Below are positions 19,831 through 25,800 of a stretch of 64,000 nucleotides of DNA, piece by piece (the first letter of the stretch is position 1; every line of letters begins with the position of its first letter). Source of the DNA: a virus; the IMG/VR virus record IMGVR_UViG_3300049207_000026, positions 7,366 to 71,365 of that record. One strand, written 5' to 3'. The position numbers are program-made.

Positions 19831-22800
19831 TATATCCCTTGGAGTGCATTTCACCGGGGACATCACCCACTTGTCCCGGCGACACTATGGGTTTGTCGCT
19901 AGCGACACCTAACGGCTGTCCCACGGGACAGCCTGCAGCCATCCAATCGTCAAAATCGGGGTACGGGACCTTCGTATCATTGCGCTCGTTGTGCTTTTTG
20001 ATGCGCGAGCATTCGGTGCGCAAACGCTGTTTAAGCTTCGCAATCCATGCTTCACCCGCTTTTTCTGCCACAACAGGGTGATAGAGCCTTCCGTCCGAAC
20101 ATTTCACCCAGCCGCGCAGAGATTCCGCGCGAATTTTCTTCCATTCTTTGACGACTCGACCGAATCCGGCGTATCCGGCGAGCACAATATCGTCGTCGGG
20201 AAGGCTTGCGGCAGGCACTTGGTGCCACGATGCGCACCACAACAAGACGGCGCATCGGAAGGCATCGCCGCTCGTTAGCACGGTCAGGTCGCTATCGCGC
20301 AGGCGCACCACGTCGAGTGGCATAAACGCGAAGTCGCGCAGGTCGCAATCGGCCGGCGTGAGTGGTTGCGGGAGGTCGGTCATGCGGCACGCTCCAGTTC
20401 CATCCCAGCAAACAGTGGCGCGTCAGCGTCCATGCGACGGCGCGCCAGATTGGCGTATTCGGGGCTGATCTCGATCCCGGTGCAGTGCGCGTCGATCGCC
20501 TTGGCTGCGATGGCGTCGGTGCCTGACCCAAAGAATGGGGATAGGATCATGCCGCCTGGCGGACATGAATATTCGGCCAGCGTGCGCACCAGATCAGCAG
20601 GCTTTTGCGTCGGGTGGATGGCGCGGCCGTGCTCCGACCGGTGGTACATGACGCTGCGCATCAAGCGCGGGCCGCCATCGACGCTTGCATACGAGCTGCC
20701 TTCGATTTTTGACCAGTGCTGTGCCTTCTGCTTGCGGCGTACCGTCTTGGCGACAGCGTCGCCTGAATACTGCGGCTTCTTGTAGACGTCGGCCCACTTC
20801 GCTGTCTTCGGGTAAAGGTGGATGGCCAACTCGTGCACTCGGCGGAAACGGTCGTTGAACGAATTCGATCCGTTGTGCTTTTCCCATACGATTTCCTGCG
20901 CATGCTTCCAACGATCGAACTCGCCAGCGCGCTCCATGAACATGCGCAGCGAGCCAAACACCCACATCGAGCCGGTCGGCTTGAGCACGCGCAGCATCAG
21001 CGTGGCCCAGCCATCTGGCCAACGGTCCCATTCGAGCGCGGTCTCGGCATACGGCGGGTCAGCGATGATGCAGTCGACCGAGGCGTCGGCCAGCTGGTGG
21101 ATCTGCTCACGCACGTCGCCGACGAGGATGGTCGTCGTCACGCTGCCTGCTCCTGCTCAATGCGGTTGCACGTGGCCGGCGCAATATGGGACTGTGGGAG
21201 GGCCTGCGCCTGCAAAATGGCGTACTCAGCTTCCCAGGTCGCGTGCGCGGCGCTGTGCCACGGCAGCGGGCAGTCGGCAAGCGGCAGGCCGGCGGCGAAC
21301 GCGGCACGCGCACGGCGCTGGATTTCGGCAATGGTGACGATCATGCTTCACCCCCGGTCGCGGCCTTGAGCATCGCCATGATGTTCGGCAACTGCTTGGC
21401 CAGCTCGCCCAGGGCCCGGTCCTTGCGCGCCTTCTCGTCCTCCAGGAATTTCTCCACCAGCCAATGAATCGGCGATGTGTCGCCCGTGGCGCGCACGAAG
21501 CGCTCCAGGTCGTCGACCGAGAAGTGCCGCGGGTCGTCCGGGTTGCCGTGCAGTTTGCGCGACAGGTCCGACTGGCTCATGTCCATGTCGGCCGCGATGG
21601 TCTTCAAAGGGTTGCGGTGCCCGTAGGCACTGGCCCGGATGCAGTCGAGCAGGTGCGGATACTTTTCCGTCAAGCCAGCTTCGAAGTCGAGGGTAAATTG
21701 AGTACTGGAAATCTGCGGCACGATAGTTTCCTCTACTTTCCGGTAGGAAAAGTGGCAAAATTTTTAGGTAGGGGATGCTTGTGCGAGTTCGGGCCAGATT
21801 TGCTGCCAGTCATCGGGGAACATTTCTTGGCGCGTGACAGCCCCGCCAGTTTCCGATTCGATGGCAACGGCAAACTTGACGGGGATCGGGCGCTTACCGT
21901 CAGCCCAGCGGCTCAGGTCCGGGACGTGTGCATTGATGGCGCGAGCCAGCGCAGCGGCGCGGCCACGTTCTTGAGAGAGGTATTGGGAAAGGTTCATGCC
22001 TGCTAGATTAGCCTAAAGCTAACCGTACTGCAAGAATTATCTTAGCTTTAAGCGAATGTACATGATTAGCCGGATGCTAAAGAATGCACGAATGAAAACA
22101 ATTGATGAAATCTACCGCGACAATCTCAGGCTATTGGCCGCCGAGCACAATTCGGTGGTGGCTGTGGCTGACTTGATCGGGTGCAGTTCGTCGCAGTACA
22201 GCCAGTGGATGAACGGTTCGGAGAACTCCGGAACCGGCAAGCCGCGAGGTATGCGGGTCAGCACTGCCAGGCGAATTGAAAAGGCATGTGGCAAGCCGGC
22301 GGGCTGGATGGACAAAGTACATGACGATAACGAGCGCGAGGTCGAGGAGCTGTTATCGCTGTTCCAATCGCTTGGAATAAAAGATAGGCAGATGGCGCTT
22401 ACGATGATTCGGGCAATCTCGGAAAACGCCGCGCAAGTGCCAAGATGATCAACAGGATATTGAATCGCGCATGATCATCCATCGCTCTTATTGCAAGTAA
22501 AACCTGATTCTCGTAAGTCATTTTTCCGCTTTCAATATTTGAAGATGGAAGCCAACTATATTTGTTAAGGGTGCATTTCTAACCCGTAAATAAAGAGTTC
22601 TTTTACGGCTATTTCATTAACGACAAGTAACAATAATCACTAACAAGGAGTGGATGTGCGATCACTAATTCTCACGCTTTTTTTTCTTTCTGGATGCACT
22701 TCCACCTCTGGCGCACTAAGAACTGGACCGGACTCGTACACGATCAGAACTACGGCATCACCTGGCGCTGGTGGTGGCGCTGCTGCCAAGAAGGCAGCAT

Positions 22801-25800
22801 ACGAGCAAGCGAGCGCCGAATGCGCAAAGGCGGGCAAGTCCCTATCGGCTGGTTCTGAAAGCGGCTCTGTGCCGGGCTGGAATGACGGCGTGCATACAGT
22901 AGACCTAACATTCAAATGCGTTTAACCGAGGATGATATGAAAAAATTAGTTTTTGCAGGCTGTGTAATCCTTGCTGGCTGCGCTTCCATCGGGCCGGTTC
23001 CAATTGGGAAGGATACGTACATGATTTCGAAACAAAGCGCTGCTGGCGCCTTTGGCTCATCTGGCGCGGTGAAGGCCGAGATTATCCAAGAGGGAAGCGC
23101 GTACTGCGCAGCAAACAAGAAGGTTTTTCAGATAGTGAGCAGTTCGGACCGCCCGGCAGGTTATGGCCACAATCCTTCTGCCGAAATTAATTTCATGTGT
23201 TTGTCCGAAGGAGATCCGGAACTCTCCAGACCAAAGTTGCGCAAGGAAGCTGACACGGTAGTTGAAGTCAGAAAGTAATTCCGCCCAACTCACAAATGGA
23301 GATAACATGAAATTCTGCGCTGTTTTGGCCTTGCTTACGCTAACCGGGTGCGCGTACAGCATGCAGATGATGCCGCGCGATAGTGGCCAGGTCTACGCTG
23401 GAACCATTAGCAGCAATGGTTTCGGCTCCGGTAAGTTGTCCGTGCAAATTGATGGACGCACCTGCTCAGGTAACTTTGTTCAGGTTGGAAGTGGTGACAG
23501 CTTTGGTTTCGCGCAAACCTATGGACGTCGCCCATCGACTACTTTAATTCAGATGAGCGGCGGCACTGAAACGTACAAGGCGCTCCTCACCTGCACGGAT
23601 GGAATGGGCCTTCGCTGCGATGCTTCCGGATCAACTAGTGGCGGTGGCGTCTGTGTGGACAGCTCATCCCGAGTCTACGACATGATGTACAACTGAGTAA
23701 CCCCGCCAATGATGGCGCGGAAAGGATGTATGGACACCTTCAAAATATCGGATGACGGGCAAACGGTTATCGTATCCGCCGATGGCGTTAACAACACGTT
23801 TTCGCTGGTGCAAGTGGAAGCCATGATTGACTTTTTCGGCGTTATTCGTGGCCAGATGAATCCGCCCGTACCACACGATCAAAGCCCGTCAGAAAAGTTC
23901 CGTCCTCTCGATAACCTATTTGTCCGTCACACACGTGCAGGACAGGTTCCGACACTCCATGGTGCGGTCCTGGTGGCCGGGTCGAGCCAATTTGGTTGGT
24001 TCGAGTACCCAATGACCGGCGATTATTGTGCGGGGCTGATTGAGTGGCTGCGTGGGAACTCGCAAGCCTTAGCAGCGCCGCCAGGTTTAACGTTGAACTG
24101 ATTACCATAACCCCTCCCAATAAGCCCGCCCAGTGCGGGTTTTTTTACGCCTATACGTACAGGCGCAGGATCAGTGTATCAAATTAATTTAGCCTAAAGC
24201 TAAAATAATGCTTGCGTTGCGATTAGCCTTACGCTAAAGTTCTACTCAAGCAAACACACCACAACCGCCGCAAAGCACGGCGAACCACTGGAGAAAAGCA
24301 TGGGACACAAGGACATGGATTGGACCGCAATCGACCGCGAGTACGAACGGCAGGGTGAAGCCGACGACGCATTCCAGGCGCGCTTGGCCGAGCAGACGAA
24401 GGTGCATGCCGCCGCGATCCGCAGGAACATCCAGACGGGCCACGCGCAGACGATCGAGAGCATTACCGAGGGCCTGTGCGATCGCCTGGGCCGCAGCGGC
24501 GTGACCGAGAAAATCGTGCGCGCCTCGCTGATCGGCGGCCCGCTGACCGCTGGCAACCTGCTGCTGGACCTGATCAACAAGTGCATCGAAGCCGATGCCG
24601 ACAACGCCGCGCTGGTCGAGTTGGACCGCGAAGAGCGTGCCGGCGGGCTGGACTTGGCCGCTATTCGCCGCGCGGCGCCTGAATTGCGGGTGCCGTCATG
24701 ACCTACAAAGTCACCATCGACTTCAAGCGCGGGCCCAGCTTCTCTCTGGAAGTCACCACCCAACGCAAGCAGGATGCGATCGAGCAGGCCACCGCCTACG
24801 CGCGCGGCTGCGGCTTCGACGCACCGGTCAAGAAGGCCGTGGCGGTGCCGGCATGACCCGCGTCCGCCGCGCCCTGGCTGTCCTGTGGCAGGCCTGCGAA
24901 GACCACCAGTGGCTTCCGCTGACCATCGCCGGCTTGCTGCTGCTGATCGTGAACACGATCGACGCACCGTTTTAACCCAACCACCAAGGACTAGAAATGA
25001 ACGAACTTACCACCCATGGCACCGAGCTAGGTTTCTCCCTGACTCCACGAACCCTGGCCGAGGCCATGGAATTCTCGAAAATCATCGCGTCGTCGGACAT
25101 GGTTCCGAAGGACTACATCAATAAACCGGGCAATGTGCTGGTGGCCGTGCAGACCGGCGCCGAGCTTGGCCTCAAGCCGATGCAGTCGCTGCAGGGAATT
25201 TCCGTGATCAACGGCCGCCCAGGCGTGTGGGGTGATGCGATGCGCGCGCTCATTCTTAGCCACCCCGAGTTTGAGGATTTGCATGAGGACAAGCAAGAGA
25301 CCCAGTGCACCGTCACGCTGAAGCGTCGCGGTCGCTCGGCAGTGGTGACGAAGTACACGATGGAAGATGCGAAGAAGGCCGGATTGGCAGGTAAGCAGGG
25401 CCCATGGCAGACGGCACCAAAGCGAATGCTGCAGATGCGCGCCTTTGCGTTCGCCGCACGCGATCTGTTCGCTGATGCGCTGAAAGGCATCAAGTCAGTG
25501 GAAGAGTTGCGCGACTATCCACCAGAGCCAGAGCGCGACATGGGCTCGGCTGTGGTGGTCGAGCAAACCGATCCTGCGCTAGCCTCACTGATTCAAGCAG
25601 CAAGTGCAGCAGCCGTTGCTGGCATGGCCAGCTACCAGATCTTCTGGAAGGAGACCAGTAAAGAGAACCGCAAGCTGCTGGCCGCTCATCATGAGACATT
25701 CAAGGAAGCCGCAGATCAGGCTGATCGAGAAGCGGCTGGGAATCAGGTTGATACACGGGAACCGGCTGCTGAGGCCAAATCTGACGCTTCGAACAATGAC

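Follow-up and report, generated by a model that had tools for sequence, protein, structure and literature searches.

The 64,000-nucleotide stretch analysed here (the window), positions 7,366 to 71,365 of the 74,109-base IMG/VR virus record IMGVR_UViG_3300049207_000026, contains two related lambdoid-type phage genomes in tandem, and the immunity region of each includes a recurrent mosaic hotspot with conserved linkers that is filled, in these phages and their relatives, by lipoprotein genes of at least five families. P1 spans approximately positions 1–41,000 and P2 begins at about 41,000; the two are collinear at an offset of 41.0–41.4 kb, with 70–95% identity in blocks. We regard the hotspot as probably a hypervariable moron slot of a small clade of lambdoid-type soil phages, in which neighbouring genes are joined by short conserved linkers. 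In each phage the slot would hold one to three small lipoprotein genes and one unrelated small gene, in the interval from the repressor gene to the terminator ahead of the second operator cluster, and the linkers would supply the stop codon, the ribosome-binding site and the start codon.

Two junctions, J1 and J2, had been recognised in the initial annotation and lie exactly where it placed them. J1 occupies 23290–23317 in P1 and 63426–63453 in P2 (here and below on the + strand unless noted), with 26 of 28 bases identical, and J2 occupies 23698–23734 and 63782–63818, with 34 of 37 identical; neither was matched in 100 dinucleotide-preserving shuffles each. When P1 and P2 were compared by sensitive blastn from the repressor to the terminator, just four shared blocks were recovered, namely J1 (93%), J2 (92%), the lipoprotein pair B/B′ (22973–23287 against 63479–63793, 69%) and the homology that resumes at 24125/64289 (88%). 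The cargo between J1 and J2 differs as had been claimed: in P1 it is lipoprotein C (23307–23696) and in P2 lipoprotein B′ (63443–63784), whose homologue in P1, lipoprotein B (22937–23278, 71% identical in protein sequence), stands upstream of J1. The genes that follow J2 are unrelated to each other, gene D of P1 (23730–24101) encoding a 123-residue protein that is not a lipoprotein and D′ of P2 (63815–64000, running to 64065 beyond the window) one of 83–90 residues. Also borne out were the AT-richness of the region (GC content 49–53%), its position downstream of the repressor and on the same strand, and its end at a terminator with a hairpin and a U run.

Cargo was catalogued in five phages and one fragment (P1–P5 and contig L031), and in the further phages J1 and J2 again bracket different genes; they were not found always to flank the same ones. 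P3 is a single IMG/VR contig found by scanning IMG/VR with J1. It has a repressor and leader of P2 type, J1 in the P1 form, C (96% identical to that of P1) and a diverged J2, after which come a zinc-ribbon gene, E (phrog_1244), an antisense open reading frame and the same terminator. P5 (L037, IMGVR_UViG_3300049200_000031) is a different phage located 40.7 kb from P3 on the same contig; it has leader 2, which is the leader of P2 (63188–63425) and is common to P2, P3 and P5 at 94–97%, as far as TCACAA, then a hairpin linker (J3), a new 194-residue lipoprotein, G, and a terminator. In P4, from the source sample, the end of an A-type gene (A′, stop TGA) is followed by a sequence beginning AATAA-CCCCGCCCATGG, the right half of J2 and D, the contig passing from 22920 to 23717 with 25 intervening letters. 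A 1,349-base contig of the Joint Genome Institute (JGI) with genes of 134, 90 and 123 residues, the last a D variant, fits this layout. A 255-base spacer of equal length suggests that the P4 leader is leader 2, the 5′ junction following from gene spacing alone. L031, a 1,078-base Logan contig, carries lipoprotein F, B″ (77% identical to B′), the left half of J2, a small open reading frame whose last codons and stop make up a J2-right-like ribosome-binding site, and the next gene. Contigs from four soil runs, aligned with the region, reveal P3-like, P2-like and P5-like phages in other studies.

As all of these sequences are metagenomic and assemblers can switch strain at short shared sequences, chimeric joins between co-occurring related phages had to be considered as a source of the layouts. 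We hold this to be highly improbable, in that the P1 layout is the same in a Logan contig (0 differences over 21000–23758) and in a JGI contig, P2-type joins occur in two runs from different studies, and the P3-type join occurs in the IMG/VR contig and in one further run.

Comparison of at least five natural variants showed that homology between the phages starts or stops at the linkers. The 96% identity of P2 and P3 extends to 63453, where J1 ends. In P1 and P3 the shared block (95% identity) opens with the first base of J1 at 23290 and closes with the final base of J2 at 23734. The block common to P2 and P5 (97% identity) starts midway through the repressor gene and stops at 63431, after six bases of J1, and the homology of every pair among the five phages resumes at 24112–24125, in the pre-terminator region. 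J1 is found before C or B′ and after B or leader 2; J2 has A′, B′ or C on its upstream side and D, D′ or E downstream. The description of a slot bounded by conserved junctions therefore holds as regards the junctions, which are real, but not as regards a single slot with two fixed sites, since three breakpoints lie within the 28 bases of J1.

J1 consists of the last ten bases of leader 2 followed by a GGAGA ribosome-binding site, a spacer, ATG and three and a half codons. J2 is conserved as a junction, but proved to be a composite of a copy of a C-rich pre-terminator motif (left) and a shared ribosome-binding site (right). The left half is TAA plus CCCCGCC(A/C)A, in which TAA serves B′ as its real stop codon but is a vestige after C and A′, which stop at TGA; the right half, TGGCGCGG followed by AAGGA and the ATG of the next gene, is common to four unrelated downstream genes. 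Because the gene-caller starts of D and the frames of P3 and P4 show the upstream ATG within J2 to be non-coding, J2 is a 32-base intergenic spacer. The C-rich motif corresponds to a 12-mer pattern, TAAYYCCGCCMA, which, with one mismatch allowed, has six copies in the window where 1.24 would be expected. All but one of them mark the 3′ end of a cassette or the terminator arm: a stop-plus-C-rich copy directly after B (23276–23287, TAATTCCGCCCA), one after C (23698), one after D (24108–24119, TAACCCCTCCCA), one that is the left arm of the terminator (24121 onward, TAAGCCCGCCCA) and one after B′ (63782). The 12-mer also follows B″ in L031 and A′ in P4, so that no cassette lacks a copy of the pre-terminator motif at its 3′ end. 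Imperfect direct repeats of the J2-left motif stand on both sides of the C cassette in P1 and of the small open reading frame in L031, and a repeat search showed that the J2-left 15-mer is not dispersed through the genome.

The third linker type, the J3 hairpin (CGGCA...TGCCG; ACGGCACGC..ATGCCGAAC), lies 10–15 bases before the starts of G in P5 (L037:3691–3712), B″ in L031 (L031:407–428) and B in L034 (L034:4969–4990), the only three occurrences in about 1 Mb searched, and so precedes lipoproteins of two unrelated families in three phages. A J3-similar sequence follows B in L035. J1, J2 and J3 contain a ribosome-binding site and a start codon but no promoter-like hexamers. Elsewhere in P1, an exact 20-base stop/ribosome-binding site/start repeat, CGATAGGGAGCGCACATGAA, brackets one small gene (30145–30164 and 30288–30307), which is the same cassette principle as that of the lipoprotein slot.

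The main rival to exchange at the linkers is that J1 and J2 are passive scars, left by nested insertions and deletions through illegitimate or microhomology joining, the survivors being those that kept the stop, ribosome-binding site and start, and that they were never substrates for recombination. This corresponds to the Hendrix-type view of phage mosaicism. It is consistent with the three different breakpoints in J1, with the vestigial TAA of J2, with the insertion-scar-like flanking of the C cassette and the L031 open reading frame by direct repeats, and with the left ten bases of J1 being the mere end of leader 2. It sits poorly with the 92% identity of J2 between P1 and P2 despite unrelated flanks on both sides, and with the joining of J2 to three or four different genes per side, for which many independent events would be needed at the same 37 bases. 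RecT and YqaJ are moreover present, and such enzymes use short, diverged homologies (PMC3945230). We consider scars alone an unlikely account; scars may later have served as homologies, in which case both readings would apply together.

A second alternative is that J1 and J2 are translation or transcript-processing elements (an unstructured initiation region, a decayed terminator serving as attenuator or stabiliser, or signals for translational coupling) which every gene in this operon would require and which are kept by purifying selection. Both contain a ribosome-binding site and a start codon, the RNA of J1 is less structured than its shuffles (z +1.4 and +1.9), as is the case for good initiation regions, and the left half of J2 equals the left arm of the terminator, with −14 kcal/mol of local structure in the J2 of P1. 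A conserved RNA structure in J2 had nevertheless to be rejected, since the z-scores are −1.8 in P1, +1.4 in P2 and +0.2 in P3 and the hairpin is thus lost in the latter two. The C and B homologues of distant relatives are without J1 and J2, and RNA function by itself leaves unexplained why homology stops exactly at the linker edges. This alternative appears to us somewhat less probable still than that of scars.

All four lipoproteins of the window have an N-terminal signal peptide that ends, as expected of Lgt/LspA substrates (pattern [LVI][ASTVI][GAS]C), in a lipobox with its cysteine at residue 14–15: LSGC in A (22656–22925, 89 residues, GTG start), LAGC in B and B′ (113 residues each) and LTGC in C (129 residues); the relatives G and F have LAGC and LCGC, respectively. 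Cys 15 is invariant both in the C-family alignment (A2) and in the B-family alignment (A3), and in the latter Cys 57 and Cys 88 are invariant as well. The residue following the lipobox cysteine is Thr or Ala, not Asp, and the sorting rules of the host may differ. A is 59% identical to its homologue in L035 and 26–33% identical to members of the B family, with the same two cysteines, so that on sequence grounds A is a short paralogue of B. The A family has 224 representative relatives, none of them in Pfam; the B family has about 25 close relatives and the C family about 30, nearly all metagenomic. No relatives of gene D were found beyond its own cluster. With A/B and C in the window and F, G and H in the relatives, the slot lipoproteins form at least five families, all unannotated. 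A more distant relative (L072, IMGVR_UViG_3300049050_000048) carries another lipoprotein of the A/B superfamily (L072:107–394, 95 residues), which overlaps a 112-residue Cys-rich gene (L072:394–732) by ATGA and is followed by the same terminator and a third operator type; this element has neither J1 nor J2.

The order of the cargo is in part retained over long distances. The pair A-B is found again in L035 (59% and 63% identity) and the pair B-C in L032 (56% and 45%), where the surroundings are otherwise unrelated, so that the A-B-C order has some constancy and the cargo is not random. The initial annotation had proposed a recombinationally shuffled array; the finding of the same junctions with differing cargo agrees with this, but the adjacencies kept in distant elements mean that the cargo is not freely shuffled. 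One alternative is that A-B-C is a single functional module, for example an envelope complex, and that phages with one gene are deletion derivatives, the pattern reflecting differential loss and not exchange. The paralogy of A and B and the recurring gene pairs fit such a module. However, C alone is usual (L010, L015, L018 and P3) and B alone is found in L034, the unrelated lipoproteins F and G fill the same place in L031 and P5, and B′ bears the initiation region of C (J1), which simple deletion of a neighbour would not produce. We therefore take differential loss from one module to be an improbable explanation, on a par with that of scars. In more distant metagenomic phages, C or B relatives are located just after repressors and before a terminator and RecT/ERF genes; in L010, L015 and L018, C is the last gene after the repressor in this arrangement, without J1 or J2.

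The lipoproteins were compared with known proteins at the levels of sequence and predicted structure. Searches of Pfam, NCBIfam, PHROGs and PADLOC with A, B, B′, C, D, D′, F and G returned signal-peptide matches at most, and with the PADLOC models at E values up to 0.1 no family was matched by A, B, C, D, B′, E or the antisense open reading frame. The initial annotation had likened the proteins to the exclusion lipoproteins Cor and Llp. No homology to Cor (phrog_1119) was found over the mature proteins, the match of B being confined to residues 1–34, the signal peptide (E 0.0042), and A, C and B′ giving none. For Llp there was no PHROG or Pfam match and no Llp chain among the structural matches listed, though the proteins may yet resemble it. 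The AlphaFold model of B′ has a beta-beta-alpha-beta-beta fold (mean confidence score, pLDDT, 76) and that of C an 8-stranded beta-barrel (pLDDT 80) with barrel matches at Z 8–11. Identification of B′ by structure failed, as Foldseek gave no PDB match at E≤0.001 and the best VIA hit, FvfA (Z 6.3), and RcsF (Z 4.7) were both judged generic; identification of C failed likewise, its matches being confined to common 8-stranded barrels. Structure searches of the atlas returned unnamed clusters only.

These comparisons leave room for a benefit to the lysogen other than exclusion, such as inhibition of lysozyme or bacteriocins, immunity to contact-dependent toxins, or stress or serum-type resistance, for which Bor of phage lambda is an example. 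The C barrel matches PliC-type periplasmic lysozyme inhibitors (Z 7.9–8.2) and neisserial surface-lipoprotein barrels (Z 8–10), and there are no matches to exclusion or defence families. On the other hand, the barrel matched is a very common one and comes without a family signal, while high turnover of unrelated families in a single prophage slot is the pattern expected of a phage arms race. We judge a benefit of this other kind to be unlikely, to about the same degree as the loss of genes from a module.

The genes around the slot are those of a lambdoid-type phage. The leftward genes of P1 encode a Cro/YdaS-like protein, a CII-like protein, a methylase and a DUF1376 replication protein, and the rightward order is repressor, lipoproteins A, B and C, gene D, terminator, a 133-residue protein, RecT and YqaJ exonuclease. 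The Cro/YdaS-like early regulator (21764–21997, − strand; Pfam YdaS_toxin 2.8e-12, P22_Cro) is divergent from the repressor (22056–22448, 130 residues, without a peptidase domain; phrog_12107 transcriptional repressor 9e-27, with weak helix-turn-helix (HTH) Pfam matches). Between the two is the right-hand operator cluster (22008–22050), with the palindrome TTAGCCTAAAGCTAA at 22008 and an inverted half-copy at 22042; the left-hand cluster (24189–24237), before the rightward early genes, has TTAGCCTAAAGCTAA at 24189 and TTAGCCTTACGCTAA at 24223, and within the record the motif is confined to these two clusters. The P2 repressor (62786–63187, 133 residues; Pfam HTH_3 1.3e-10) is heteroimmune to that of P1 and has its own operators, TTTTAGGCATGCCTAAAA, on either side of the P2 array, at 62713 and about 64352. 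As repressor-specific operator clusters flank the array on both sides in P1 and in P2, the array belongs to the immunity region, where it is downstream of the repressor and on its strand. The intrinsic terminator (24121–24146) has a hairpin at 24122–24142 followed by U7 (fold −11.5 kcal/mol, z −2.3). The phage RecT named in the initial annotation is indeed encoded 0.9 kb downstream of the array (RecT-family annealase, 24997–25833, Pfam RecT 4e-06), together with a YqaJ-type exonuclease (25830–26471, Pfam YqaJ 3e-14).

Several further observations were made on the surroundings of the slot. In the P5 repressor (L037:3074–3439, compared with 63016–63187 of the window), the C-terminal ~85 residues and the leader have 97% DNA identity to P2, whereas the N-terminal DNA-binding half is unrelated and the downstream operators are of a different type, TTAGCACGCGCTAA; this repressor is a chimera, and looks like the product of a domain swap that created a new immunity. 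Antisense genes, unrelated to each other, lie between the post-J2 gene and the terminator in P2 (63884–64273, − strand, 129 residues, running past the window) and in P3 (L001:5704–6012, +, 102 residues), and their starts adjoin the C-rich pre-terminator motif, the opposite strand of which reads as their ribosome-binding site. Both leaders, which are otherwise unrelated, contain TTTTACG(G/CG)CTATTT (22570–22600 and 63385–63405) some 50–60 bases before the first lipoprotein start; this may be a regulatory site or due to chance. A 22-mer of the terminator, CCCGCCCAGTGCGGGTTTTTTT (24124–24145), occurs exactly in 47 IMG/VR contigs with unrelated flanks, far above chance. It was for this reason ruled out as a clade marker, and it may be convergent or a widely shared element able to serve as a crossover point. 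The IMG/VR contig of P3 and P5 (L037, L038; copies 40.7 kb apart) is a second, independent record that likewise carries two different phages of the clade in tandem. With two records containing such pairs, tandem double lysogeny seems usual for the group, unless both assemblies contain the same kind of join.

In phage lambda, rexA and rexB occupy the same place, which is a classical site for accessory genes expressed from the prophage. The slot resembles the cI-rexA-rexB arrangement in that it follows the repressor on the same strand, ends at a terminator, lies between the operator clusters and has the recombination genes after it, but its genes are unrelated to rexAB and encode small lipoproteins that vary among phages with the same repressor, and their co-transcription with it is putative. 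Integron cassettes carry attC sites, which are imperfect inverted repeats of ~57–141 bp, adjacent to the IntI integrase with attI; in contrast, the linkers here are 12–37 bases in length, the J2 hairpin is not conserved, and the neighbours are a repressor and RecT/YqaJ instead of an integrase. Cor (of phi80, N15 and HK022) and Llp (of T5) are outer-membrane lipoproteins that block FhuA (PMC9586334). They share with the slot proteins their small size, phage origin and lipoprotein nature, although no sequence relation was found in the PHROG and Pfam searches and no structural match among those listed, and their genes are located elsewhere in their genomes. Closer in position is Ltp of the Streptococcus thermophilus phage TP-J34, a lipoprotein exclusion gene beside the repressor in the lysogeny module that is expressed from the prophage (PMC3952083); it differs in its Gram-positive host and its unrelated protein, and is a single gene for which no conserved linkers have been described.

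In T4-type phages, composite promoter-terminator motifs, known as PeSL, have been suggested to be places where sequences with no other similarity undergo homologous exchange (PMC2839356, PMC4122927). Like these, the slot has a short terminator-derived motif repeated at the borders of variable genes. PeSL are, however, found in lytic myoviruses in many copies per genome and have an early promoter within the motif, whereas in the temperate phage studied here the few copies lie in a single operon, with stop, ribosome-binding site and start in place of the promoter. Morons, a concept developed for HK97 and HK022, are extra genes of deviant composition with conserved neighbours and a terminator (reviewed in PMC3594210). 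The slot agrees with this description in its base composition (GC fraction 0.49–0.53 against about 0.61 around it), in a content that varies among phages with both flanks in common, in its terminal terminator and in probable expression from the prophage; it departs from it in that a crude scan detected no promoter of its own and in that the cassettes are chained in one operon with common linkers. Finally, Rad52-like phage recombinases including RecT drive mosaic formation on short, diverged homologies (PMC3945230). The RecT and YqaJ of this phage agree with the exonuclease-partnered RecT/Redbeta/Erf type of that work, which used homologies of hundreds of bases, and to linkers of 28–37 bases it is extended by extrapolation.

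For the origin of the mosaic we favour, on balance, a model in which the linkers are short homologies used by the phage RecT/YqaJ or the host RecA to swap cassettes when relatives share a cell. Encounters of this kind would be easy because phages of the clade occur as tandem double lysogens, and a swap at a linker would leave the incoming gene correctly translated and terminated. For T4-type phages, the accepted view is that shuffling depends on conserved regulatory motifs flanking the variable genes (PMC2839356, PMC4122927). As to function, the prophage may produce the lipoproteins along with the repressor, and after sorting to the outer membrane they would mask or alter surface receptors and so shield the lysogen, a possibility that we rate somewhat below even; an exclusion function is suggested only by position and by analogy with Cor, Llp and Ltp. 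A more far-reaching version, which we consider speculative and quite improbable, is that the 12-mer and the ribosome-binding-site linkers form a cassette-capture signal at the end of the repressor operon, worked by RecT/YqaJ and a counterpart of PeSL or attC, by which these phages collect and trade lipoprotein genes, and that A/B, C, F, G and H are five new families of superinfection-exclusion proteins, with a different outer-membrane receptor masked by each.

Several results weigh against these proposals. The J1 breakpoints fall at three different bases (63426, 63431 and 63453), so that a discrete exchange site is not required, and the retention of A-B and B-C order in distant elements argues for a trimmed functional unit rather than free shuffling. 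The cargo combinations fail a strict four-gamete test and could be produced by serial replacements. J1 and J2 were found in this clade only: degenerate J2 gave six matches in scans of 185,579 species genomes and nine in JGI metagenomes, all rejected as chance matches with unrelated flanks and taxa, the exact J2 core had no match in IMG/VR, and blastn of 21700–24900 against the phage GenBank collection likewise gave none. The cargo proteins have no similarity to known exclusion or defence proteins in Pfam, PHROGs or PADLOC, and their predicted folds are generic. P5 has a fibre allele of P1 type (90% identity) and yet a different lipoprotein, so the cargo does not track that fibre, in a comparison limited by too small a sample and by doubt as to whether this fibre binds the receptor. 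A crude scan of the + strand, which missed the true terminator too, detected no sigma-70-like promoter, and a run search found no RNA runs containing slot DNA.

Precedents exist for morons next to repressors, for lipoprotein exclusion genes and for shuffling of the linker type. What is new is their occurrence together, the repetition of the pre-terminator motif at the cassette ends, the three linker types and the unannotated lipoprotein families. If neither the exchange-site nor the envelope-factor reading is true, the slot would be a case of ordinary, well-documented moron turnover. At least five lipoprotein families without annotation emerge from the analysis, several of them widespread in Proteobacteria metagenomes; because they are found repeatedly next to prophage repressors, they are good candidates for new factors that mask receptors or modify the envelope. 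If the linkers are exchange sites, the slot would offer a compact natural test of the old 'linker' model of mosaicism in temperate phages, with homologies of 28–37 bases that keep the translation signals, RecT/YqaJ next door, and tandem double lysogens.

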